Source: Candidatus Heimdallarchaeota archaeon
Lineage (GTDB): Archaea > Asgardarchaeota > Heimdallarchaeia > Hodarchaeales > Hodarchaeaceae
DNA: 64,000 nucleotides
Assembly (NCBI GenBank): GCA_020353515.1
Contig: CP070695.1
Coordinates: 2,610,155 to 2,674,154, forward strand
Reading direction: 5' to 3'
Part shown: piece after piece, positions 9,316-42,019 of the stretch
Position numbering within the stretch: position 1 is the first letter of the stretch
Layout of the letters: each line of letters starts with the position of its first letter
Notes under the pieces: model-generated
Seen by the model: the letters and a program-made list of their open reading frames with translations, nothing else
The model's database searches: none
What the model was told of the DNA's origin: nothing
Program-made: the position numbers and the translations under genes

Positions 9316-9897
9316 TTATTCTTGAATAAATTCCGCTTTCCAATTCTGAATCCAATCTACGATCTTATCGAACAAAATTTGCTCGGTTGACGTCAAATTC
9401 CTTTTTCTCTGAGCAAGTACCTGTCTACTATCGGTCATTTTGACTAGTTTTGAGATTCTTTCCTGAATCAACTGGTTAAATTTTGTTTTTTGTCTTTTCT
9501 GCTCTAATTCACTGAATTGCGACTCCTTTTCCTCCATCGCAAGAAAATGATCCTTCAACAAGACATTAAAGTATGGATGAAGAGGCTGTAATTCACCCAC
9601 ACGAACTTCTTTACGAACTGATCCTTCTAATTCGGGCAAACTAATGGGAAAATTAGATTTAAAGTCTTCAATCATTGAGCTTTCATGTAATATTTCCGCA
9701 ATGAAATATGGAACCTCAATTTGACTTCCTTGTGAGGAAGCTGGAATATTAATATGTTCAAATGAAAATCCAGAAAAATTTTGTAAAAATTTCACAGAAA
9801 CATTACTTTCAGTGAGCTCGAATCGTATTCTTTCCAGCTCTTTCATCATTTCTATTTGTTTACCCGTTTTTATTGTTGATCCAGAGACTTTTGGCAA
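9316..9897 (-). CDS. gins23: GINS subunit, Gins23 (Psf2/3-like, B-A domain order)
   Basis: N-terminal beta B-domain (G..IEVPYFIAEIL), helical A-domain (LQPLHPYF...ERISKL...NLT..E); directly upstream of mcm. Confidence 0.8.
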   Translation of the reverse strand: MPKVSGSTIKTGKQIEMMKELERIRFELTESNVSVKFLQNFSGFSFEHINIPASSQGSQIEVPYFIAEILHESSMIEDFKSNFPISLPELEGSVRKEVRVGELQPLHPYFNVLLKDHFLAMEEKESQFSELEQKRQKTKFNQLIQERISKLVKMTDSRQVLAQRKRNLTSTEQILFDKIVDWIQNWKAEFIQE

Positions 9898-30720: not shown

Positions 30721-31476
30721 ATGCCGATTGCTGAAAATGATTGGATAAAAATTGACTACACAGGCCGTCTAAAGGAGAACTCTAAAGCTTTTGATACAAC
30801 ATTAGAGGATATAGCGCGTTCTGAACGTATTTTTGATGAGAAACGGGGATATAACCCCCTATTATGTCGAGCTGGGGATGAGAAGTTCTTAATCCCTGGA
30901 TTGGCTAAAAACCTAATCGGATTAGAATTAAATTCTCCTCAAACCTTTGAAATTCCATCTGAAGATGCATATGGAGAAAGGGATAGCAAAAAAATCGAAA
31001 TGGTTCCTACAAAACGTCTGCGAAAAGCCAATCTCGATCCAAGGGTTGGCAATCGTGTACAATTAGCTGGTAGAAGTGGAACCATAATTTGGGTAGGTGG
31101 AGGTAGATCACGGATCGATTTTAACCATCCCCTAGCGGGAAAGGATCTAATCTTCGATGTTACAATCGTTGAACATCTAGAAGATGAAGAACAAATTCGA
31201 AAAGAAATTGTATCTCGCCGATTTCCTGGAATTAACATTGATGAACTTGAGATCGAGATTTCAGAGGATCCAGATACTATATCCATTTCATTACCAAATT
31301 ATCTGATCTTCATGGAGGGTCTTGCAATTGCCAAATATTCGTTAGCAACAGAGCTTCGTGATTTTCTAGAGTTTAAAGTCGTTAAATTCGTTGATGTTTT
31401 TGATTATCAAGAAACACCACCTTCAGATGAAGAAGTAGAGCCTCAGGAAGAAGAAGGTTCCGAAGAAGAGGAGTAA
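30721..31476 (+). CDS. Long-type FKBP peptidyl-prolyl isomerase (SlyD-like)
   Basis: DYTG, FDTT, AYGERD, DFNHPLAGK, acidic tail. Confidence 0.93.
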   Translation: MPIAENDWIKIDYTGRLKENSKAFDTTLEDIARSERIFDEKRGYNPLLCRAGDEKFLIPGLAKNLIGLELNSPQTFEIPSEDAYGERDSKKIEMVPTKRLRKANLDPRVGNRVQLAGRSGTIIWVGGGRSRIDFNHPLAGKDLIFDVTIVEHLEDEEQIRKEIVSRRFPGINIDELEIEISEDPDTISISLPNYLIFMEGLAIAKYSLATELRDFLEFKVVKFVDVFDYQETPPSDEEVEPQEEEGSEEEE

Positions 31477-31536
31477 TCCTTAATCTAAATACTATCATTT
31501 GATTCTATTATTGAACAAATTCAATAACAATGATGT

Positions 31537-31740
31537 TCATTCTTCAGATACCGCTCGCATCTTGGGTGTATATTTCTTAGTCCATTTAAACTTTCTAGGA
31601 TCCCGCTTAAAATCCAATAAAGATCTACGACATTTGCGACTGCAAAATCGAAGTAATTGTCCACTTCTTCGTACAAATGAGATCCCCGTCCCAGCCTCAA
31701 TATCATGTCCACAAAAGGCACAAGGGAAAATTCTGACCAT
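31537..31740 (-). CDS. rpl24e: 50S ribosomal protein L24e
   Basis: CAFCG..I..GTG...V...G....FCSRKC, PRKFKWT. Confidence 0.96.
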   Translation of the reverse strand: MVRIFPCAFCGHDIEAGTGISFVRRSGQLLRFCSRKCRRSLLDFKRDPRKFKWTKKYTPKMRAVSEE

Positions 31741-31767
31741 TGTTTTCACCAATCAATATACTGCGAC

Positions 31768-31983
31768 TCAGGGACGTTTCAAGTTTCGAGCTTCTCGTTC
31801 TGTTTCTCTTAAAAGGAGAACGTCACTTTTACGGATCGGGCCTTTAACATTACGTACAATAATTCGACCTCGATCTCTTCCTTCTAGTACTCGAACACGT
31901 ACTTGAGTAATTTCACCTGTTACACCAGTACGTCCAATAATCTGAAGAACTTCGGCTGGAATAGAGATTTCTTCCTCACTCAT
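31768..31983 (-). CDS. rps28e: 30S ribosomal protein S28e
   Basis: [22 protein letters not shown]. Confidence 0.97.
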
Positions 31984-31995
31984 TTAGATGCCTCC

Positions 31996-32373
31996 TTATA
32001 TTCCAGCTAATTCTTTTATTCGAACAGCAAGATTGTCGATTTTGGCTTTGACTTCGCCTTCGTTTATAATTGAGCAGCTCGCTGTCTTTACTCCAAGATT
32101 ACAGGCTTTTCCTAGCTCATCTTTGCTAATAACATAAAGATAAGGGATTTTCTTATCCTTGCAAAGAAGGGGTAGATGTGCAACAATCTCTGGTGGATCT
32201 ACATCTAACGCAATAAAAACTAATTTAGCTTCACCACGTTCGATACTTTTTGTGGTTTCGTTCGTCCCCTTACGGATATTCGCTGGTTCAGTGCTGACGT
32301 TTTCGAGTAACGCCAAAGCATCGCTGTCCAGCCCTTCAGGTTGTTCATAATTCACATAGAATGGTTTACTCAT
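31996..32373 (-). CDS. rpl7ae: 50S ribosomal protein L7Ae
   Basis: RKGTNETTK.IERG.AKLV.IA.DV.P.EIV.HLP.LC. Confidence 0.97.
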   Translation of the reverse strand: MSKPFYVNYEQPEGLDSDALALLENVSTEPANIRKGTNETTKSIERGEAKLVFIALDVDPPEIVAHLPLLCKDKKIPYLYVISKDELGKACNLGVKTASCSIINEGEVKAKIDNLAVRIKELAGI

Positions 32374-32389
32374 TTTTTTTGCGACCTCC

Positions 32390-32447
32390 AGGGTCTTATT
32401 TCAGTAAGAATAGTCATACCCAATCCTTGGTCGGGCAGTCAACCCCG
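32390..32447 (-). promoter_or_regulatory. Structured 5' leader of rpl7ae (candidate autoregulatory element)
   Basis: Stems UGCCCGA/UUGGGUA and UCUUA/UAAGA closed by GGGU/ACCC next to the GGAGG SD; contains AUGA and CUGA. Confidence 0.4.
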
Positions 32448-32539
32448 CTTTTTGAAGAATTAAATATTTTACTTTTTTTGTGAAAGGTTTCCAACCTTTT
32501 TCTTCTTAAATAACCCTTAGATATCGCCAAAATTTGTAA

Positions 32540-32809
32540 TTATCTCTGATCCAACCAGTAGACTCTCCATTCAGAGACACGTCTATCTCGTATTTTAGCA
32601 GTCCACATGCTTGGACCATTTAATCGTCTCTCATTAGAGCAGATGGAATAACCAATCATAACAACAACATTATCAGCGACAGTAACAGAGGTGAATATGT
32701 TTCTGTAGTCAGGATAATTCGCAAAGAATTGTCTCCACCCCTCTTTCATATTATTATCAACGTCTCCAGAGTTATCTATGAACATATGATCCTCAGTCAT
32801 TAACTTCAC
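32540..32809 (-). pseudogene. SnoaL/NTF2-like protein, 5'-truncated
   Basis: LMTEDH.FID, W..FF...PDY, W.A......V.EWRVY; first helix missing, in-frame stop just upstream. Confidence 0.65.
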
Positions 32810-33659
32810 TAAACCAGAATCGTTCCATCATAGAAACCAGAGTTATGTATACATAATATTTCTATGCTATTGGATTCTTATTCACTTTAGAAAGAAAAAG
32901 AACCATAGTTACCTCACATGATTATGCCATTACCAGATTGGTACTTGAGATCAACCATTGGAGAGACAAATCAGGAGTTAAAAGAGCAAGTTGGTATATC
33001 TGCAATACCCAAGCCTGTATATCATGTGTAAAACTCTCATATAAAAGGTATTGAAGTATTAACCAACCATTAGAGAGATTTATTTGCGAAAGGGGCCCTG
33101 AATTTCACTTTAATATAAGATATAATCATTTTAATAAATTATTTTCTAAATAAAACCATTTCTAGAGTTTAATCAGAGTTTATGCACAGAAACAGGGGAA
33201 TTATTCTTTAATCAATAGTACTTCTTTTTTGATAAGTCTTAGAACTCGTATTTCTGGTAGTTGGTGACGTCAGTTCTTTTTTTACATTGAAAGAAAGCAT
33301 AATATGTAATTTTTTCAGACAAAATGCTATAATTACTGGAAGCAATGTAGGGCACATAATTCAGGAAAACAAGAGATATAAATTTCTGTATATATTAACA
33401 AAGGTTCGAGACGCTTAATTACTAGCGTATCTAATTACTATAGACTATTTATCAAGAAATCTGGTTGAGGGAGTAAGATGTGAATGGTTAAATTCAAAGT
33501 TAAAATGAATAGCTTTATTAATATGATATGTTACGCCGAGATTAACATTATTGAAAAAAATTTCAGGTTATAGGACTGACAATACGATTATGAGGGTCAC
33601 AGTACCCTTCCTCGGGTAATATAAATCCTCCTAAGGTCATTTGAAACAATTCTATAACT

Positions 33660-34577
33660 TTGAAAAATCCTACCACAATGTTATGGATGATTTTTGCAAG
33701 TCTATCGGCTATTTTTGAGTCCTTTCGGTACATTCTGCTTAAAAAGAGTGTCATTACTAATATACATCAATTTACCTGTCATATGTATTTTTTGTCTGGT
33801 ACTTTGATGTTATTTTTCAGCTGGTTAATTGGTTTTCCTAGTTTGAATTCATACTTCTGGATGACTTTTATTATTGTACTTCTTCTTAATACTCTAGCTG
33901 TTCCCATGTATTTGAAGGCTATTCAGCTCTCAGAAGTTTCTCTTGTCGTACCATTATTCTCATTTGGGGCTATATTCTCTATCTTCTTAAGTTTTTTATT
34001 GATACAAGAGATACCTTCCTTGATTGGGATGATAGGAGTATTATTGATCTGTTTAGGTTCTTACGTTCTGAACTCGCCCTCAGGAAAAAACTCGTGGTTA
34101 GAACCCTTAAGGCAACTTTTGGTATCAAAAACAAATATACTTATGTTGATAAGTGTGTTGCTAACTAGTATAGTAACAATTTACTCAAAGGTATTAGTTC
34201 AACAATCAGACGTCATATTTGGTACCGCTTTAGTTTATCTTGGTTTAGGCTTATTTTTTTATTCATTTGGTTTCAGGAACTCATCCCATAGAGGCTATTT
34301 ATTTGATAATAGAGAAGAACTAATCCTAGAAGAAAATATTCCTAAGAAAACCTTTCAGGTGATTTTTTTTCTAAGTGTTTTACTTGTTTTGAGTGTGATT
34401 ACTAGGAATCTTGCTTTAATCTTGCAAAAGGTATCTTATGTGATGGCATTCCGATCAATTAGTATTATTTTTTCAATATTGCTTGGAGTAATATTGCTAA
34501 AAGAAGTTAAAACCCAAGGAAAGGGCTTTGCAATACCAATAATGGGACTAGGTTTAGTTCTAGTAGCCTTTGTGTAA
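33660..34577 (+). CDS. EamA/DMT family transporter
   Basis: About 10 TMs in two EamA repeats; KAIQLSEVSLVVPL, L.QE, LKE. Confidence 0.88.
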   Translation: MKNPTTMLWMIFASLSAIFESFRYILLKKSVITNIHQFTCHMYFLSGTLMLFFSWLIGFPSLNSYFWMTFIIVLLLNTLAVPMYLKAIQLSEVSLVVPLFSFGAIFSIFLSFLLIQEIPSLIGMIGVLLICLGSYVLNSPSGKNSWLEPLRQLLVSKTNILMLISVLLTSIVTIYSKVLVQQSDVIFGTALVYLGLGLFFYSFGFRNSSHRGYLFDNREELILEENIPKKTFQVIFFLSVLLVLSVITRNLALILQKVSYVMAFRSISIIFSILLGVILLKEVKTQGKGFAIPIMGLGLVLVAFV

Positions 34578-34639
34578 AAAGATATGATAATCTAGTCATT
34601 CTAAAAATGTTAATATGTAACTTATTTTCTTGATTTTTA

Positions 34640-35143
34640 TTATTCTTCTTTGTCAATAAAGTGTTCAGAACGAACAATAATACTCATGATATATTTTTCT
34701 GCTTCTAGTGTTAATCTAGCTTTTATTATGGGATACTTTAAGAATTCTTTCTGTGAGGTATCAATCACTAATTTAGATTTAATCCGCTTATTAATTGTTG
34801 CAATTGAAACAACTACCTCCTCATTTGATGATGATGAAATGCTTAACAATCTATTATCTAAATCAATACTCAACCTTTTGAACACATGCAATTTTTTCCT
34901 ATTTTTCTTGTATGTGAGAACTACTTTATCTCTAGCTCTTACTACAAAGTTTGCTGGAATATCATATTTTATTCTAACCTCTTTATAGGTTAAATGATGA
35001 AGTGCAACTGAATTAAAACACCCTTCATCATATGCAATAGTGCTAATATAGTTACAGACCTCTCTATAGATTCTTATTGTATTTTTCAACTTTGAAGAAT
35101 CTTCGACAGTAGGCTCCAGTATACCTAGGATGGTAAAATTCAT
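34640..35143 (-). mobile_element. TnpB (IS200/IS605 OrfB)-derived N-terminal REC/WED half, no RuvC
   Basis: LEPT, YREVCNYIS, LHHLTYKEVR.KY.IPA..V.RA..KV, D.RL.S, VSIAT...R, A.L......Y....V; stops before the GVDLG RuvC-I motif. Confidence 0.75.
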
Positions 35144-35282
35144 TCTTCATCAAACAACTTTCAGATTAAATGATCCAAGTAAATGTGTGGATCAATCATA
35201 TTTTTAGTAAGTTCAATCCTTAGTGATAATAAGATTTCCATATTGATCTGAATCCTGAGATTGACGAAACATTATTTAGAAA

Positions 35283-37007
35283 TTACTTGAGGGGTAACAT
35301 TGCTGATCTTCTTGAGAATTGTTTAGCTCCATAATTTTCTAGCTGTTTTTCTAAAAGTGGGTAACCATTGTCTTCTAAAATTCTATTTAAACGATCTAAT
35401 TCAGATAATATAGAAAATAAATTTGGATCAATAGCTAAACATCTTCCGTCAACAATGGCAGTTTGGATCTCTCCACGTGCTATATCAGATCCCTTCAAAT
35501 GTGGTGCATCAAAAATTCCTAACTTAACTGCTTTTGTTAATGTTAATGGATCAATAAATGGATCTTTCACAGATTCTCCTGAGATTTTTTGAATTGCTTG
35601 AAGAATCAGATAACTGTCAGAAATAAGCTTTAATTTATAAGCCTCAAGCTTTCGATCTAAGTTGATTGAAGGTAATCCCCTTATAGAATTTGAAATCACT
35701 TTATGAGCTATTTTGGCACTTTCTATCACGTCTTCAGATGTTGCTGCATGATCAGCCTCACAATAACTGACCACATGGACAATATGTGGTTTAATAAACA
35801 TAGCCATTTGAATAGAAGATGCCAATTGCCCTTTTGCGAGATGAGGATCCTCGGGAAAACTCATGAGTCCAGTACGAACCTGACGATATGTAGTAAAGGT
35901 TTCAGAATGTAAACTTTCAATTAATTCCGTCTTAGCTAGCATTTTTGCTAAGTCATATCTAGGAGCTAGACCAATAGGAGTATTAAACATCATTTGAGAA
36001 ATATAATTATGCACTCCAGCCTTTTTTGAATTGTATGCACCTAAGAAGGCAGCTGCGACCGCTATAGCATCTGGAGCTGAACGAAGACTCCAATGATGCG
36101 CCTCATTTGCTTCAAATGGTATGTTATGTTCACCATGCCAAGTCATATTAGCAATATTCTCTTTAATTGCTTCCTGTAATACTCTATCACTTCTACCATC
36201 CAATTCAGAGTACCAGAAAAGAGGAGTAGCCCCCCAAGCATTATCAATAGTATTTCTAAGCATTCTTGATATTTTTATTAAATTTCTTGTACCTGAATAA
36301 CAACGTAATAAAGGATAATTTCCACGTCGAGAAACCTTATAAAAACTAATTAGATCTTCTTCCGAACGAATTGGAACTCCACCTGCTCCCTGTTCTGACT
36401 TTTTCATCTTGATAGGATTGAAAAAGTGTTCTTGAAAATTTTGATCTGGCCCTATTGAGATTATATCAATGATTTTTGCTGCTGCTACAGTTTTGATGCC
36501 TTTCTGGGTCTCTTCAACAGAAGGAACCCCATAATGGGCACGTAATAAGGGATAAGGATAATAAAATTCTATTCGGCCGATTAAACTCGTGGGAAAAGAA
36601 TTCTTTTCCTTTGAGGAGGAGAGTGAATCTCTCAAATATTCAATAACGTCCTTTTCTGTTGTGTTTCCACTAAAAAGACGATCAAATATTCCCAAGCGTC
36701 CAATTGCATTACATACAGGACTAGTACCCCCGAAGATCCACTTTTTCTTTCTTATCTTAGGGGTCATTCTGTTATTAAGTTCCTTCACAAGCTCAACACA
36801 GGCTTCTGGGGTTAAACGATAACTTAAAGCAATGATATCAGGATCCAATTTTTTGATTTCTGCAATAATATCTTCAATTGTGTTTGGAGGACGTAAGAAA
36901 GATGTTTTATACCCTTGTTGCTGTGCAATTCCCATGAAATTAAACACACCAGCAACATGAACACAGGAACCTAAAGTAGCACAAAATATGTGATTACTAT
37001 CTGTCAT
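35283..37007 (-). CDS. Cobalamin-binding domain fused to a TIM-barrel (glutamate-mutase-like) domain
   Basis: N-terminal GSCVHVAG (variant of DxHxxG), ALSY, FGG Rossmann B12 motifs; about 430-aa C-terminal domain; ATGA overlap with upstream gene. Confidence 0.8.
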   Translation of the reverse strand: MTDSNHIFCATLGSCVHVAGVFNFMGIAQQQGYKTSFLRPPNTIEDIIAEIKKLDPDIIALSYRLTPEACVELVKELNNRMTPKIRKKKWIFGGTSPVCNAIGRLGIFDRLFSGNTTEKDVIEYLRDSLSSSKEKNSFPTSLIGRIEFYYPYPLLRAHYGVPSVEETQKGIKTVAAAKIIDIISIGPDQNFQEHFFNPIKMKKSEQGAGGVPIRSEEDLISFYKVSRRGNYPLLRCYSGTRNLIKISRMLRNTIDNAWGATPLFWYSELDGRSDRVLQEAIKENIANMTWHGEHNIPFEANEAHHWSLRSAPDAIAVAAAFLGAYNSKKAGVHNYISQMMFNTPIGLAPRYDLAKMLAKTELIESLHSETFTTYRQVRTGLMSFPEDPHLAKGQLASSIQMAMFIKPHIVHVVSYCEADHAATSEDVIESAKIAHKVISNSIRGLPSINLDRKLEAYKLKLISDSYLILQAIQKISGESVKDPFIDPLTLTKAVKLGIFDAPHLKGSDIARGEIQTAIVDGRCLAIDPNLFSILSELDRLNRILEDNGYPLLEKQLENYGAKQFSRRSAMLPLK

Positions 37008-38152
37008 TCCTCTAATACACTCTCCTGTTTCTTTATTTCGATATAGAATTCATCACCCAGAGTCATGTATTCTTTCAGTAAGTAAAATGGAATTTTATCA
37101 AGTTCCAGTGACTCAACAGTCCTCCCAAGAGATCTATAATCTTTATTGAACATACAATTGGCTAAATTAATTATTGCATCTATGAAAGGGGTTGGAACTT
37201 CAGCTACCTCTCCAAAACTAGAAAGGGGAATTAATCCAGTTGGAATATCTTCAAAGATATACCGGACATTTAAGGTTGAAGGTGCCATAACATTTTGATA
37301 TTCTTTTGTATTATGAATGGTTTCACATAAACTACCTCCACTACTTCCATAAACAGAATTCAACCATTTTTGTAGAGTAATTGCCTGTACTCCGAACGCG
37401 TCTGCTACAGCAACTCGTTCTTTATCCATTTTTTCTAAGAAAGAAGCAACAGAAGGAGATACTCCATCAATGTAATGTCGGTAGTTAACCTTTGGATCCT
37501 CACATCTAGCAATATTAAGTAATAAAGGGGTAGGGTGAAAAATAGCACCAATGTTATCGAAAGAAGTATTCAAAACAGATTCAGTTTCCCAAAAAGCACC
37601 ATTAAGATCCTTCAAAAACGGGACAACTTCCTCATTTTCACAGGAAGGAAATGCTGAAATTGGGACTCTTCTCTTTATCCCGGAAATTGTTACTTGACCA
37701 GGTTTTGAACATCGAGACACAAATAGAAGAGATTGAGCTTCTACAACATGTGGTTTGAAAGGGCCATTATTGTTCCGAATGGAATTTCTCACTTCAATTG
37801 CGCCTCCAGTTCTCCCTGGATTTAAAACAACGATTTGATTGCCATCTAAATAAGGAGTAATTCTTGCAGCTACATCTTTATGCGCATTAGCGGTCGTTAC
37901 GACCATTATTAACCTACTTTGTTTAATAACCTTGTGAATTGATGAAGAAATAAAATCAACGTCATAATGTCCTTCTAATAGTCCTGAGGAAGTAATACCT
38001 TTATTTTCTTTTATCGATTCAAGGACTGCTCTTGACCGATTCCAAATTTTTACTTTATAACCTTGTGATTTCGCATACGCAGCAAACGCATGTCCTCCAT
38101 TTCCTAACCCGAGAATAGATATAGAATCGTCTTGAATCTTATTATTTTTCAT
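37004..38152 (-). CDS. NAD(P)-dependent opine (octopine/nopaline) dehydrogenase family
   Basis: GLGNGG Rossmann, NPGRTGG, N.GAIFHP, D.ER..VA, RYIFEDIPTGL, GRT. Confidence 0.92.
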   Translation of the reverse strand: MKNNKIQDDSISILGLGNGGHAFAAYAKSQGYKVKIWNRSRAVLESIKENKGITSSGLLEGHYDVDFISSSIHKVIKQSRLIMVVTTANAHKDVAARITPYLDGNQIVVLNPGRTGGAIEVRNSIRNNNGPFKPHVVEAQSLLFVSRCSKPGQVTISGIKRRVPISAFPSCENEEVVPFLKDLNGAFWETESVLNTSFDNIGAIFHPTPLLLNIARCEDPKVNYRHYIDGVSPSVASFLEKMDKERVAVADAFGVQAITLQKWLNSVYGSSGGSLCETIHNTKEYQNVMAPSTLNVRYIFEDIPTGLIPLSSFGEVAEVPTPFIDAIINLANCMFNKDYRSLGRTVESLELDKIPFYLLKEYMTLGDEFYIEIKKQESVLEE

Positions 38153-38313
38153 ATATAATCTTCCTGTTAGTTTTAAATAATTCTCGTCTATTAAATGCTA
38201 TTTTAATGAGTGTTCTCTCATTTATTTGCTGATTATCCTATTAAAAAAAGAAAGTCTAACTAAAATGAGAATTTCTTAGGAAATCAGATCTATTATCTCT
38301 TTTTACTGAATTT

Positions 38314-38540
38314 ATTCATATGAATGAACAAAGAGGAAATTTTAATGTTCTTTACACAAGTAATTCTTACAAAATTTCTTTATTAGCTTTTCGGATGTAT
38401 AAAACGTGATATTTATAAACAATACAACTATAGGCATAACAAATTACTATAAAATACCCATATTCATATATGAATATAGCTTAATTTCGATATTAAACTA
38501 TTACTTATGTTTTTTAGGGATAGTATATTCATAAATGACT
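38314..38540. promoter_or_regulatory. Three related palindromes ATTCAT(N0-2)ATGAAT upstream of the opine dehydrogenase operon
   Basis: ATTCATATGAAT 38314-38325, ATATTCATATATGAATAT 38460-38477, ATATTCATAAATGACT 38525-38540. Confidence 0.5.
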
Positions 38541-38739
38541 TATTTTTTATTGTAAAAAGACCAATTACAGTTATACTCGAATTGATAGACTTCCTTATAC
38601 TCGGAAGAAGTACATTATTGAGGGAAACCATGAATTTAAAATCAGTTAGTCCCCAGTATTGGCTAGGTCCATCAAAAGAGGAGTAAATTTAAATCTCCAA
38701 ACCTTGAAGAAGATTCTAGAAAATTAATTACTATTTCTT

Positions 38740-39273
38740 TTAATACTCATTGGGTATGCGTTCCATTAAACAGTCAAAACCTATTCCTTTCATTTCAGAG
38801 TTCTCTTTAAATCCGAATCGATGATAATAGTTTTTTAATTTTAAGATCTCTTCGTCAGTTGGTTTTTTCTCTGGACTAATGAAGGGCATTGCATGCAGAG
38901 TTAAAGTAATTCCTAATTCATCTGCAATTTCCGTTAATTCTTCGAAGATATAAGTGGACAATCCATTTCCTCGAAATTCTGGTTCAATCCAAAGAGTGCC
39001 TATATAGCATTCATTTTTTTTAGCTTTCCATGCTAGTGAAAAGCTCCCTATCCTAAGAAAATCGTCTTTAATTTCTTCACCAATGTCTATAAAACAATTT
39101 ATTGTCTTTTTTTGGTCTATTACTCTTTTTAACGAGATAGGTTCTCCCATAAATACTTCTTCTAAGCTATTAATGTTGAAATGACAAAACTGACTATTTG
39201 TTTGGAATTCAACCTGGAAATCCCAATAATCAAGGTTTGCACAATCTTGATTAGTTTCGGTCACAGAATACAT
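38740..39273 (-). CDS. GNAT family N-acetyltransferase
   Basis: LWIEPEFRGNGLS motif A; L..YY.RFGF. Confidence 0.85.
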   Translation of the reverse strand: MYSVTETNQDCANLDYWDFQVEFQTNSQFCHFNINSLEEVFMGEPISLKRVIDQKKTINCFIDIGEEIKDDFLRIGSFSLAWKAKKNECYIGTLWIEPEFRGNGLSTYIFEELTEIADELGITLTLHAMPFISPEKKPTDEEILKLKNYYHRFGFKENSEMKGIGFDCLMERIPNEY

Positions 39274-40291
39274 TAGTCGTCTCCTTTAATAGCTTTTATT
39301 ATTTTATTCTACCCTATTTAAGATTTAAGATGGTCTACATAAATCAAAAAGCATTCATGAACTTAAGATCTCCAATGGTATCATCACACACGAGAAAAAC
39401 GAATATTTTCAGGTTTTAAACCCAATAAACTATTTCTCTTAATTTCATGATGAATGTGAAAAGGATTGAGGCTTCTTTCTGATTCTATCTCATTATTCAT
39501 GTATTGATCATTCATAAGAAAATATCTTAATGCAATTAATCATGCTTGTTTTCGATTTATTATATAAAAATTCAGCTATTTAAGGTTTTTGGTATTCTAT
39601 CACTTTTATTCTTAAGGTATTAGACATATATTTCTTCAAGCGATCTCATGAGAGTAGAACGGCTAAAGTATGATGAGAGGCGGAAAATTAAGCCCATAAT
39701 GAGAGGATAAAGGATGAATTTTCTTTTTTTATAATATAGTATTGTAAGATAATCTAGGATTCAAACAGATTTTTGGAACAAAATTCTTTGAAAATTCGAG
39801 TCAATGATTGTTTCAGAGGAAATTCGTCTTATAATATATTGTAATAACCTCTTAGATTAGGTATTAACACAAATATCGGCCAATGGTGCTAATTTTTCAG
39901 TTGGTCAGAAGAACTCAAGAAAGCTAGATGCGATTCTCCTCCACTCAAAATATGAGATTTGCCTTATTTTAATGGATACTATGATAAGATTAGGTTATAT
40001 CTTTGAATTGTGTGACTCAGGACATTTAATTGATTGAAACGCGAAAGAATAATTAAAATCATCATTTCACTTTAGTATATATGAATTTAACATATATAAG
40101 TGATATTCAAGTCAATGGATTAAACATATATCGTTGATGCCTAAAAGGGACTTAGCTAGTTATCTAGGAATTTAGATGTGATTGAATTTTAATAACAAAT
40201 CATTAATGGGTTTAATACTAAAAAGTAAGGGATTTGATGTAGAAATATATTGAATCTGTTATTAGATGTGCAAGGATTTTTTTGTTATTCA

Positions 40292-41422
40292 TTATCTAGA
40301 ATAATAGGCGGAGAGGTCAAGTCCATGGATTTTTAGAAGTCCGGCCGTTTTACCAGTAATTATTAGAGGTACTTTTTTTAACTCTGAAATATTCCGAGAA
40401 CCAGTAAGGAAACAAGCCACTCTTAGCTGATAGGTGATTTCTTCGATTTTCTGCACAACTGCTTCTGCAGAGTGTTGTTGAACTGTGAAAAGAAATGGAA
40501 TCGCAATCCCGGCTGCATCCGCTCCGAGAGCAATTAATTTTGCAATATCTAATCCACTTCTTACCCCCCCAGATCCAATAATTATTCCATCGAAATTTCT
40601 TTTGGCTAGGATTGTACTTAACACTGTAGGAATTCCCCAATCCCAATAAACTTCCCCAGTGTTCTTAAACTTGGGCAGGCTTGTCCTAATCGCCTCTACC
40701 CCTGCCCATGACGTTCCTCCCGCTCCTTGCACATCAATTGCTTGAAATCCCATCTTCTTAATTACTCTAATATCATGAAGACTAAATCCTGCACCAACTT
40801 CCTTGGCGATAACAGGGACAGAATGAGCTTGAATTAACTGTCTCGTTTTTTCATGGAGTCCTTTTAATTCCGTGTCACCTTCAGGTTGAATTGCCTCTTG
40901 AAGGGGATTAAAATGCACTGCAATGGCATCAGCTTTAATCATGTCAATGAGTTCTTGAAATTGATTATTAGTAAGCCCCTGAGCTATTTGACCCGCTCCT
41001 ATATTTCCAATAATCAGGGAATTGGGTGCTTTTTCTCTCACAATATTAAATGATTCTTTAACCTCATCATTTTCTAGAGCTGCTCTCTGACTTCCTACTC
41101 CCATACCGATATTGGTTTGTTCAACAGCTTGAGATAAAAACGCATTTAATTTGTGGGTAAAATCATGTCCTCCTGTCATCCCTGATATAATTAAGGGAAT
41201 GGAGAGCTTTTTATTAAAAATCTCACATGATAAATCAATCTCGTTAAGATTTAAATCAGTGGTTGCGTGATGCACAAATGAGATATCCTCTAATCCTGTT
41301 GTTATAGCTCGGCCTTGAACATCATGTTCCAAGCAAATTTGGATATGTGCTAGCTTCCTATCGGATGTCAAATTATTTTTTTTCTCAATTTTATCAGTTA
41401 ATACTTTATATTCTGTTTCCAT
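40292..41422 (-). CDS. fni: Type 2 isopentenyl-diphosphate isomerase
   Basis: RKLAH, MTGG, GVGSQR, H.NPLQE..QPEG, KEVG.G, GGTSW, WGIPT. Confidence 0.97.
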   Translation of the reverse strand: METEYKVLTDKIEKKNNLTSDRKLAHIQICLEHDVQGRAITTGLEDISFVHHATTDLNLNEIDLSCEIFNKKLSIPLIISGMTGGHDFTHKLNAFLSQAVEQTNIGMGVGSQRAALENDEVKESFNIVREKAPNSLIIGNIGAGQIAQGLTNNQFQELIDMIKADAIAVHFNPLQEAIQPEGDTELKGLHEKTRQLIQAHSVPVIAKEVGAGFSLHDIRVIKKMGFQAIDVQGAGGTSWAGVEAIRTSLPKFKNTGEVYWDWGIPTVLSTILAKRNFDGIIIGSGGVRSGLDIAKLIALGADAAGIAIPFLFTVQQHSAEAVVQKIEEITYQLRVACFLTGSRNISELKKVPLIITGKTAGLLKIHGLDLSAYYSR

Positions 41423-41434
41423 GTTGGGATTCTC

Positions 41435-42019
41435 TCACTTTACTACTTGCTGTTCACTTTTTTTCCATCGTCTATATTTCTCATTTGGAATATTTAAACA
41501 GTCTAAAACTTTCCCAGTAATGAAATTAAATAAATCTTGGATGTTTTGTGGTTTATGATAGAATCCTGGACTTAATGGGAGAATTATCGCACCATATGTG
41601 GCGAGTTTGTTTAAATTGTGGATGCAGGGGGGACTTAAAGGAGTTTCACGTATTCCTATGATCAAAGGTCGTCGCATCTTGAGCATTATATCAGCTGCCC
41701 GCGAAATAAGATTTTCAGTATTTGCATTGGCGATGTTACTAACTGTTTTTACTGTAGCTGGTATAACAACCATCCCATCTATCAATGTTGAGCTACTGGA
41801 AAGGGGTGCATCCATTTCTTTGCTATCATATACTCGAAAAGCTATTTCTTTGATTTTCGAAACGTCTATCCCTACTTCATCTTGTAGTACATATTCTGCC
41901 CATTCGCTCAAGATAACATGAGTCTCTATTCTGCTTTCTACTAAAGCTTGGAGTACCTCTATTCCATATTGGATTCCAGAAGCCCCTGTTAAAGCAACAA
42001 TTATACGCTTCGATTTCAC
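41435..42019 (-). CDS. ubiX: Flavin prenyltransferase UbiX
   Basis: ALTGASG, RAAD..LK..R.L, RETPL, PGFYH.P. Confidence 0.95.
   Translation of the reverse strand: MKSKRIIVALTGASGIQYGIEVLQALVESRIETHVILSEWAEYVLQDEVGIDVSKIKEIAFRVYDSKEMDAPLSSSSTLIDGMVVIPATVKTVSNIANANTENLISRAADIMLKMRRPLIIGIRETPLSPPCIHNLNKLATYGAIILPLSPGFYHKPQNIQDLFNFITGKVLDCLNIPNEKYRRWKKSEQQVVK

Follow-up and report, generated by a model that had tools for sequence, protein, structure and literature searches.

An opine dehydrogenase (ODH) gene and a gene for a B12-dependent enzyme lie side by side in the genome of a Candidatus Heimdallarchaeota archaeon, between an EamA-family transporter gene and a GNAT acetyltransferase gene. Which of these genes belong together, and what does their product do? 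A preliminary description of the window, the 64,000-nucleotide stretch of contig CP070695.1 that was analysed, had joined all four into a small-molecule pathway in an AT-rich island, in which an unusual opine is made or rearranged for export or an amino acid is fermented by a new route.

The ODH/B12 gene pair and its surroundings

The ODH gene (37004..38152, minus strand; ORF and Pfam Octopine_DH) encodes a 382-aa protein of the CENDH type, and the gene that follows it (35283..37007, minus strand; ORF and Pfam B12-binding) encodes a single-chain B12 enzyme of 574 aa. Both ORFs were confirmed at these positions, as was the reported ATGA stop/start overlap that couples them (37004..37007, minus strand; TCAT on the plus strand). 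The same 4-nt overlap recurs in 40 related loci. Among 73 loci with upstream DNA, sampled across archaea and bacteria, 68 have ODH immediately upstream of the B12 gene on the same strand, so the pair is strongly conserved. The B12 family is present in at least 563 GTDB species genomes in a scan of such genomes. Distant paralogs of the B12 enzyme (28-35% identity) likewise have an ODH gene immediately upstream, and this ODH is itself divergent (24% identity), indicating that the coupling is older than the subfamily split. The two genes form a conserved module that is coupled at translation.

The true unit is the two-gene ODH/B12 operon, and the EamA and GNAT genes, both adjacent as described, are bystanders. 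The EamA/DMT transporter gene (33660..34577, plus strand; Pfam EamA, 3.6e-16) lies on the strand opposite to the pair, and no homolog was found in any of 80 related loci, syntenic relatives L006 and L010 included. The GNAT acetyltransferase gene (38740..39273, minus strand; Pfam Acetyltransf_1, 2.4e-06) is a lineage-restricted neighbour with homologs only in two or three close relatives (79-80% identity in L006 and L009), and GNAT accounts for 2 of 63 upstream neighbours overall. It is uncertain whether the 167-aa ORF immediately downstream of the B12 gene (34640..35143, minus strand) is a member of the module. This ORF is conserved in close relatives, occupying the +1 position in L006, L008, L009 and L010 (72-90% identical) and occurring also in L007; it had no Pfam match, and its sole family match is a weak one to the N-terminal domain of IS605 OrfB/TnpB-type transposases (TIGR01765, E 1.3e-4).

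The stretch is flanked, as previously noted, by an L7Ae gene (31996-32373) and by a mevalonate-side gene, that for type-2 IPP isomerase (40292-41422). The low GC and sparse coding attributed to it were borne out: region 32810-40291 has a GC content of 32.1% compared to 35.8% for the genome (0.9th percentile of 7.5-kb windows) and a coding fraction of only 64.5%. The idea of an acquired island was not. The AT-richness stems from long spacers, EamA, GNAT and the 167-aa ORF, whereas the ODH and B12 genes have genome-average GC (36%) and a vertical-looking phylogeny. Related genomes L006, L008 and L010 carry the pair at the same place, with the IPP isomerase block on one side and the L7Ae block on the other, and this conserved position shows that the two genes are not a foreign island.

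Upstream of ODH is a conserved non-coding leader/promoter block (38240..38497, minus strand; nhmmer) that is unique in the genome; beyond the window it is kept only in L006-L010 (E 1e-54 to 1e-61). Inside it lies a perfect 18-bp palindrome (38460-38477), also unique in the 4.94-Mb genome (expected 0.002). A stable RNA structure in the leader was unsupported (z -0.40, with an unfavourable alifold covariation term), and the palindromic leader may serve as a DNA-level control site.

Enzyme class of the two products

The first product of the operon appears to be a genuine opine dehydrogenase. It matches Pfam Octopine_DH (3.5e-44) and is encoded by a single-copy gene. This reading rests on its full-length match to Arthrobacter N-(1-D-carboxyethyl)-L-norvaline dehydrogenase (CENDH, 1bg6; E 2.6e-79) and on the alignment of H206, R297 and D302 with the catalytic H202, R292 and D297 of that enzyme. 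Enzymes of this type join an amino acid and a 2-oxo acid reductively using NAD(P)H, or catalyse the reverse. Residue R114, invariant in 72 pair-linked ODHs, is opposite Ala111 of 1bg6, a hint that the substrate is more acidic than that of CENDH.

The B12 enzyme begins with a cobalamin-binding Rossmann domain (approximately residues 6-130; Pfam B12-binding, 3.2e-08) containing CxHxxG, followed by a GlmE-like TIM barrel (approximately residues 136-552). A Foldseek search with the AF2 model (pLDDT 86.7) matched 1cb7_B at E 1.8e-14. The top fold match of the barrel was GlmE (1cb7_B; Z 33.0, rmsd 3.1 over 379 residues), followed by KamD (Z 30.0) and OraE (Z 26.6), compared to a Z of only ~14 for methyltransferase barrels. 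Alignment of the enzyme with GlmE by hhalign gave 95.9% probability (E 5.5e-09, 383 columns). The preliminary assignment of the C-domain to a glutamate-mutase-E-like barrel thus held, as did that of a fused mutase, since an S-type B12 domain and an E-type barrel are naturally joined in the single chain.

The motifs reported earlier, SCVHVAG (residues 14-20) in place of DxHxxG together with PLLRAHYGV, GGVP and RCYSGT, are all present. C15, H17 and G20, the defining residues of CxHxxG, are invariant across the main family, and the canonical DxHxxG is retained in 16 of 20 sampled paralogs. A cysteine stands where an aspartate normally backs the cobalt-binding histidine. We know of no precedent for an invariant Cys-His dyad among AdoCbl isomerases, and it may give rise to different cobalt chemistry. 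In a profile alignment, as distinct from superposed coordinates, E417 is aligned with GlmE E330, which we take to be a contact to the adenosyl ribose, and H158, Q192, Y237, G259 and G271 are opposite GlmE R66, R100, R149, E171 and Y181. Two invariant arginines, R156 and R235, are new and lie two residues earlier on the GlmE-equivalent segments. The positions of all the glutamate-binding residues of GlmE thus seem to be replaced and the substrate pocket rebuilt.

Some paralogs are fused to the MutL/GlmL family, which accompanies glutamate mutase. Neither the B12 domain nor the superfamily alignment showed an invariant lysine able to bind PLP, which argues against a PLP aminomutase. The genome encodes a CobA-type adenosyltransferase. 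On the other side, neither CobS nor a MutL-type partner was found in it, and for want of CobS the cofactor must be salvaged. On balance, it is highly probable that the B12 protein is a His-on cobalamin enzyme of the AdoCbl isomerase superfamily, with glutamate mutase E as its nearest known relative; its cofactor would be adenosylcobalamin.

Regulation, neighbours and proposed role

In seven bacterial loci (L029, L030, L034, L037, L069, L072 and L041) a c-di-AMP riboswitch lies immediately upstream of ODH. Na+ riboswitches were found in two further settings, both bacterial and both with MscS channels. In a Planctomycetia locus, where ODH and the mutase gene are 8 kb apart, a separate Na+ (nhaA-I) riboswitch precedes each gene and an MscS-type channel gene follows each; in a Firestonebacteria locus, mutase-AsnB-ODH-MscS-like genes follow a single Na+ riboswitch. 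There was no riboswitch match in 9 of 18 bacterial loci tested, and the window and 8 archaeal loci yielded no Rfam element. AsnB is encoded within three genes of the pair in 8 loci from several phyla, and a Ddl-like ATP-grasp enzyme in 6. NadE-like and ATP-grasp enzymes are encoded near the pair in Theionarchaea, and one mutase-ATP-grasp fusion protein adjoins a class-I GATase. Such ATP-spending amidation and ligation genes lend the pair a biosynthetic flavour. Together, the riboswitches and the carboxylate-amidating neighbours point to a salt-stress pathway, whose product is probably a solute not yet described.

We propose that the mutase, by means of an adenosyl radical, would rearrange the carbon skeleton of an amino or imino acid that is rich in carboxylates but is not glutamate, and that the dehydrogenase would make or consume a secondary-amine (opine) linkage in the preceding or the following step. 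The product would then be tailored in many lineages by enzymes that amidate or ligate carboxylates. As the bacterial operon is turned on by salt or potassium stress signals, it would most likely serve to make a compatible solute or counter-ion not yet described. This Asgard archaeon possesses the core pair only, vertically inherited and behind its own conserved palindromic leader. The riboswitch link is bacterial and no diadenylate cyclase domain was found in this genome, so the salt-stress role would carry over to Asgard archaea by extension from bacteria. We give the whole explanation, a two-gene operon of ODH and AdoCbl mutase with a biosynthetic salt-stress role, a probability of about 0.45.

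ODH reactions are reversible, and the pair could instead be catabolic, with ODH oxidatively cleaving an imported opine-like or gamma-glutamyl compound to an amino acid and a 2-oxo acid and the mutase rearranging one fragment for fermentation, in the way that glutamate mutase acts in the methylaspartate pathway. The surroundings of the MutL-fused paralogs do look catabolic, with SBP_bac_5/OppBCDF (Opp-type) importers, Peptidase_C26, Amidohydro_3, a KamA-like radical-SAM enzyme and a GntR regulator; the carriers are mostly anaerobes that ferment peptides and amino acids, and the nearest folds, GlmE, KamD and OraE, all belong to fermentation enzymes. However, the main family has no conserved transporter, lyase or CoA-transferase beside the pair, its recurrent partners are amidating or ligating enzymes that consume ATP, and the Na+ and c-di-AMP switches with MscS channels suit solute synthesis better. 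We consider a catabolic role rather unlikely.

An enzyme without adenosyl-radical chemistry, in which the Cys-His dyad adapts the corrinoid to methyl transfer, redox chemistry or sensing, would fit the invariant Asp-to-Cys change and the lack of a MutL-type partner in the genome. Many database records label the family 'methionine synthase', but no NCBIfam methionine-synthase model matches the protein. The best sequence matches of the B12 domain include methyltransferase corrinoid proteins (4jgi, 7xcn), yet the B12-binding_2 cap is absent, because the domain begins at residue 6, and the fold scores favour mutases (Z 27-33). The paralogs with DxHxxG and MutL fusions also weigh against this reading, which we judge improbable. 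Least credible of all is the four-gene pathway, in which ODH, the B12 enzyme, EamA and GNAT of an acquired island make, acetylate and export an unusual opine. The four genes are adjacent, GNAT is retained in two close relatives, and the opine metallophore pseudopaline is produced and exported by an ODH (CntM) and a DMT exporter (CntI). The distribution of EamA and GNAT, a ground for rejection named in the preliminary description itself, and the composition, synteny and phylogeny of the pair nevertheless argue against it. The lack of a nicotianamine synthase noted earlier was confirmed for the whole genome, in which no NAS/CntL-like domain was found; with no conserved exporter either, the suggested parallel with the Cnt system is unsupported.

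Comparison with known systems

The pair has been in print since 2009 without a function, in agreement with the mention in the preliminary description of similar pairs in anaerobic bacteria. The 'novel B12-dependent protein family' of Zhang, Rodionov, Gelfand and Gladyshev (2009; PMC2667541), adjoining an octopine/nopaline dehydrogenase gene, is the same family, and the Halothermothrix orenii Hore_09740/09750 operon shows the same family and adjacency (PMC2626281). Nearby D-Ala-D-Ala-ligase-like and asparagine-synthase genes were likewise recorded, with function unknown (PMC2667541, PMC2626281). In the passages of these reports that concern the family, the scope is 11 bacteria or a small number of thermophilic genera, with no archaea, and the GlmE kinship, Cys-His motif, MutL-fused paralogs and riboswitch control do not appear. 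Our literature search found no paper assigning a function to the B12 family and no characterised member.

Glutamate mutase GlmS/GlmE (EC 5.4.99.1, Clostridium cochlearium; PDB 1cb7, 1ccw, 6h9e) shares with the B12 enzyme the best-matching TIM barrel, a Rossmann B12 domain with a His-on HxxG, the E330/E417 correspondence and paralogs fused to the GlmL/MutL family. Unlike its separate S and E subunits with DxHxxG, the window protein is one chain with an N-terminal B12 domain and CxHxxG, and its gene has an opine dehydrogenase as partner, with no methylaspartase or glmL gene nearby. Lysine 5,6-aminomutase KamDE (8t0v, 1xrs) and ornithine 4,5-aminomutase OraSE (3kow) rank second and third among the barrel matches, and OraE also matches the B12 domain by sequence (E 8.4e-4), but no invariant lysine of their PLP-holding type was found in the B12 family. 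CENDH (Arthrobacter sp. 1C) has the Rossmann motif, Octopine_DH domain and catalytic His/Arg/Asp in common with the window ODH and differs at Ala111; we know of no pairing of CENDH with a B12 enzyme.

In the osmolyte clusters asnO-ngg (NAGGN) and ect with mscS, genes for solute synthesis are accompanied by enzymes that amidate or ligate, or by a safety-valve channel. We know of no osmolyte pathway in which a B12 mutase or opine dehydrogenase takes part, and in the window none of such accessory genes adjoins the pair. Elsewhere, AsnB-type amidotransferases, ATP-grasp ligases and MscS recur beside the ODH/B12 pair, which in bacteria is under salt- and K+-responsive riboswitches.

The ODH-B12 gene pair and its surroundings

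The opine dehydrogenase (ODH) gene (37004-38152, 382 aa) and the B12-domain protein gene (35283-37007, 574 aa) lie on the minus strand and overlap by ATGA at 37004-37007. A preliminary description had joined them with an EamA exporter (33660-34577, plus strand) and a GNAT gene (38740-39273, minus strand) into one pathway on an AT-rich island. All of its open reading frames were recovered at their places, the overlap is real, and every motif quoted is present in the B12 protein. The flanking genes encode L7Ae (31996-32373) and a type-2 IPP isomerase (40292-41422), and ARAGORN found no tRNAs in the window. The host genome is a single 4.94-Mb contig that is 96% complete, and the closest relatives of the window proteins are from Promethearchaeota/Hodarchaeales/Heimdall-type Asgard archaea.

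To survey the family, each GTDB species was represented by one genome in a pattern scan. Relatives of the B12 protein were confirmed in at least 563 of these genomes, and one search returned more than 4,900 sequences at E<=1e-3. Identity is ~50% between Asgard archaea and Bacillota. ORFs were called and clustered in the 80 loci that were kept. The neighbourhood survey revealed that the pair is conserved: of the 73 loci having upstream DNA, 68 have ODH immediately upstream in the same orientation, and the identical 4-nt overlap occurs in 40 of the related loci. In six of the seven loci without ODH, the locus starts at a contig end. The genes flanking the pair varied. The commonest families at position +1, asparagine synthase and 4HBT thioesterase, were each found in 6/75 loci and the commonest at position -2 in 4/63 at most, so a conserved third gene was rejected. 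The IPP isomerase gene immediately precedes ODH in two close Asgard relatives (L008 and L010).

No homolog of the window EamA was detected in any of the 80 loci, including L006 and L010, two close relatives that are syntenic on both sides. GNAT homologs were confined to two of the close relatives, L006 and L009. The unit is therefore the ODH and B12 genes, with EamA and GNAT outside it, and annotation should describe a two-gene unit that does not include them. The island fared little better. A 7.5-kb stretch does have 32.1% GC compared to 35.8% for the genome (0.9th GC percentile; coding share 64.5%), but the ODH and B12 genes have average GC. In the ML tree, the window B12 protein falls within a well-supported clade of 11 Heimdall/Hodarchaeales sequences, nested in a mostly archaeal clade and apart from the Bacillota clade. 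By this placement, the pair has long been resident in the lineage and is not an island. The preliminary account is upheld in part, both in what it observed and in what it inferred; the ODH/B12 pair and the GlmE-type barrel described below stand.

Three further observations concern the spacers. The 167-aa ORF just 3' of the B12 gene (34640-35143, minus strand) is kept in five related Asgard genomes at 72-90% identity. Among protein families it matches only TIGR01765, weakly (E 1.3e-4), which represents the N-terminal domain of IS605 OrfB/TnpB-type transposases. The ORF may have originated as an N-terminal piece of TnpB that was domesticated or is decaying and has stayed at a fixed position. At 38554-38643 (plus strand), 30 residues match the start of ribosomal protein uL16/L10e with 63% identity; in the close relatives L007 and L009, the uL16/L10e gene lies next to ODH on its upstream side, in divergent orientation. 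The 30-residue stretch looks like a gene remnant within the long spacer. An 89-aa ORF between L7Ae and EamA (32540-32809, minus strand) corresponds to a SnoaL-like protein of 119 aa in L006 (82% identity over 92 residues) but is shorter at the N-terminus.

Class and active sites of the two enzymes

The ODH carries the Rossmann motif GLGNGGHA (residues 14-21), with NAD_Gly3P_dh_N, NAD_binding_2 and ApbA matches over residues 11-110. Residues 191-333 match Octopine_DH (PF02317; E 3.5e-44, 150.9 bits against a cut-off of 30). Over its full length it matches Arthrobacter N-(1-D-carboxyethyl)-L-norvaline dehydrogenase (CENDH, 1bg6) at E 2.6e-79. By alignment, H206, R297 and D302 correspond to the catalytic H202, R292 and D297 of 1bg6, and each of these residues is invariant among 72 pair-linked ODHs. 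Judged from these sequence features, the protein is an opine dehydrogenase of the CENDH type, predicted to use NAD(P)H to condense amino acids reductively with 2-oxo acids. The pair-linked ODHs have an invariant R114 where 1bg6 has Ala111, a weak hint that the substrate may bear an extra negative charge.

In the B12 protein, PF02310 covers residues 6-97, and the B12-binding_2 helical cap is absent in a Pfam domain search. H17 and G20 are conserved in the family and in its distant paralogs. An AlphaFold model built on 24 homologs (pLDDT 86.7, pTM 0.85) had glutamate mutase E (GlmE; 1cb7_B) as its top Foldseek match (E 1.8e-14). VIA gave Z 33.0 for GlmE (rmsd 3.1 over 379 residues), 30.0 for lysine 5,6-aminomutase and 26.6 for ornithine 4,5-aminomutase, compared to about 17-20 for acyl-CoA mutases and about 14 for methyltransferase and pterin barrels. 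All top barrel matches from Foldseek and VIA are AdoCbl isomerases. With hhalign, a 44-sequence profile of family and paralogs matched a GlmE profile taken from canonical glmL-glmE-mal clusters (95.9% probability, E 5.5e-09, 383 columns). A narrow alignment gave 64% over the C-terminal half only; with the paralogs included, the probability was 95.9% and the match spanned the entire barrel. Against the PDB, the single sequence had no match and a 24-sequence profile had B12-domain matches only. The fold scores and the profile match uphold the earlier suggestion that the C-domain is a GlmE-type barrel. The class I His-on isomerase architecture, a cap-less B12 Rossmann domain with a cobalt-binding His plus a TIM barrel over the corrin's upper face, is present. 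We put the probability at roughly 0.85 that the B12 protein is a predicted enzyme of the AdoCbl isomerase class, an uncharacterised variant coupled to opine dehydrogenase.

The other classes that such a domain combination could represent were weighed against this assignment. A methyltransferase of the MetH or MtaC/MtaB type was rejected on the missing cap and on the barrel scores (Z about 14 vs 27-33 for mutases). None of the NCBIfam methionine-synthase models match the B12 protein, and 'methionine synthase' is the wrong family name. The PLP-dependent aminomutases (KamDE, OraSE) score next to GlmE in VIA. Against them speaks the lack of an invariant, PLP-holding Lys: the B12 domain has none, and in the 44 sequences of family and paralogs no Lys is fully conserved, with Arg in place of K355 in three sequences. 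Glutamate mutase itself is the closest fold, and E417 aligns with GlmE E330. The GlmE residues R66, R100, R149, E171 and Y181, which we take to bind glutamate, would however be replaced by H158, Q192, Y237, G259 and G271. Two invariant arginines, R156 and R235, appear to be new and lie two residues before replaced GlmE positions in the same segments. The B12 protein is thus, as far as aligned residues can tell, not a glutamate mutase. MutL domains were absent from the host genome and from the surroundings of the pair in related loci, and a search of five carrier genomes for canonical GlmE found weak self-matches only.

The cobalt motif is a second departure from glutamate mutase. CxHxxG is invariant in the main family and DxHxxG is found in 16 of the 20 paralogs sampled; the Cys was therefore acquired secondarily on a canonical His-on framework. 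The rebuilt pocket and the Cys-for-Asp exchange at the cobalt-binding His suggest new chemistry. To our knowledge, few AdoCbl isomerase reactions have been described, and new ones are rare.

Regulation, cofactor supply and gene neighbours

In seven Bacillota loci, a c-di-AMP riboswitch (RF00379, 72-118 bits) is directly upstream of ODH, and an RF00379 or RF03057 aptamer was found in the leader of 9/18 bacterial loci tested. In a Planctomycetia locus (L073), 8 kb separate ODH from the mutase. Each lies behind its own Na+ (nhaA-I) riboswitch (684-743 and 9793-9852), with one MscS-type channel gene after ODH and another after the mutase. A Firestonebacteria locus has one Na+ riboswitch (L057:163-223), followed by mutase, AsnB, ODH and an MscS-like gene. 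Loci from different phyla repeatedly have carboxylate-amidating or -ligating enzymes close to the pair (AsnB, NadE-like, Ddl-like ATP-grasp, and ATP-grasp plus GATase), which agrees with the D-Ala-D-Ala ligase and asparagine synthase already noted near the family in a 2009 paper (PMC2667541). Together, riboswitches and neighbours favour an ATP-spending, salt- or K+-induced biosynthetic pathway, in which the product of the pair would most simply be a solute. A salt-stress solute as the physiological role can be inferred from the bacterial relatives with moderate strength. In bacteria, the riboswitch wiring suggests that the pair contributes to salt and potassium homeostasis in a way so far unrecognised.

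For the archaea, no Rfam elements were detected in window 31000-42000 at E<=1 or in eight archaeal loci, and no diadenylate cyclase (DAC, PF02457) domain was found in the host genome, although the control archaea have one. A ~260-nt block upstream of ODH (38240-38497) is conserved in the window and five close relatives only, and contains a perfect 18-bp palindrome at 38460-38477 (ATATTCATATATGAATAT). Block and palindrome are each unique in the 4.94-Mb genome; a whole-genome search for a regulon gave no further copies beyond chance. A structured RNA was rejected (single-sequence z -0.40 vs shuffles; alifold -8.8 kcal/mol with an unfavourable covariation term). Counts from a sigma-70 promoter scan were near the shuffled expectation, and the sigma-70 model is irrelevant to an archaeon. 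We infer that the block is a promoter plus operator, a site acting at the DNA level.

AdoCbl can be supplied in the organism by a CobA-type adenosyltransferase (G000:2278577-2279086 in the whole host genome), with a B12-binding protein of 137 aa encoded 2 kb away. The genome encodes 16 B12-binding domains. Neither CobS nor a PduO-type transferase was found in it, so corrinoid salvage by the host is likely.

Paralogs and comparison with known systems

The distant paralogs of 1,202-1,226 aa have 28-30% identity over 93-95% of the B12 protein query and carry a fusion to the MutL/GlmL family, which accompanies glutamate mutase. The fusions support radical AdoCbl chemistry. An ODH gene is directly upstream (24% identity to the window ODH), and the operons encode an Opp-type importer together with Peptidase_C26; one of them adds a KamA-like radical-SAM enzyme. 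The paralog stretches L094:1926-13298 and L096:1-11639 comprise an Opp-type ABC importer, Peptidase_C26, ODH, the mutase-MutL fusion and a KamA-like radical-SAM enzyme. Unfused 624-aa paralogs have ODH upstream as well, and a further relative carries a GshB/RimK-type ATP-grasp fusion and is located between ODH and a class-I GATase. A putative ODH-B12 fusion (P0135) was left out of the evidence, since translation of its locus with table 11 does not give that protein. Since ODH is upstream even of distant paralogs, the ODH-mutase partnership is older than the main family. The MutL-fused operons are probably a separate, catabolic pathway on the same enzyme pair, and they keep a catabolic reading of the window pair alive beside the biosynthetic one favoured by riboswitches and neighbours.

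Two papers of 2009 deal with the family and leave its function unassigned: Zhang et al. (PMC2667541), with a prediction for 11 bacteria in which it is 'always adjacent' to octopine/nopaline dehydrogenase, and Mavromatis et al. (PMC2626281), with an account of the Hore_09740/09750 operon. Our literature search found no published functional study of the family after 2009. The family is large and highly conserved, yet no reaction has been assigned to it since its first description. One tentative proposal, with the odds rather against it as a whole, is that the pair would be the core of an undescribed B12-dependent pathway whose product, a rearranged N-carboxyalkyl amino acid, would represent a new class of compatible solutes or counter-ions; some lineages would amidate it. 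The cobalamin enzyme would have a unique Cys-His cobalt ligand pair, and the pathway would be common to thermophilic and sediment anaerobes and to Heimdall/Hodarchaeales-type Asgard archaea, where a palindromic operator would replace the bacterial ion-sensing riboswitches.

The opine metallophore (Cnt) system, to which the locus had been likened, consists of a nicotianamine-synthase-like CntL, the ODH CntM and a dedicated exporter. The window, in contrast, has no CntL-like gene and EamA is not conserved with the pair; nicotianamine synthase (PF03059) was not found in the 96%-complete single-contig genome, and the parallel was dropped. The glutamate mutase operon includes glmL and methylaspartate ammonia-lyase (canonical glmL-glmE-mal), whereas no such genes are beside the pair. 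Glutamate mutase carries DxHxxG in a separate small S subunit, whereas the B12 protein has its CxHxxG domain fused N-terminally to the barrel.
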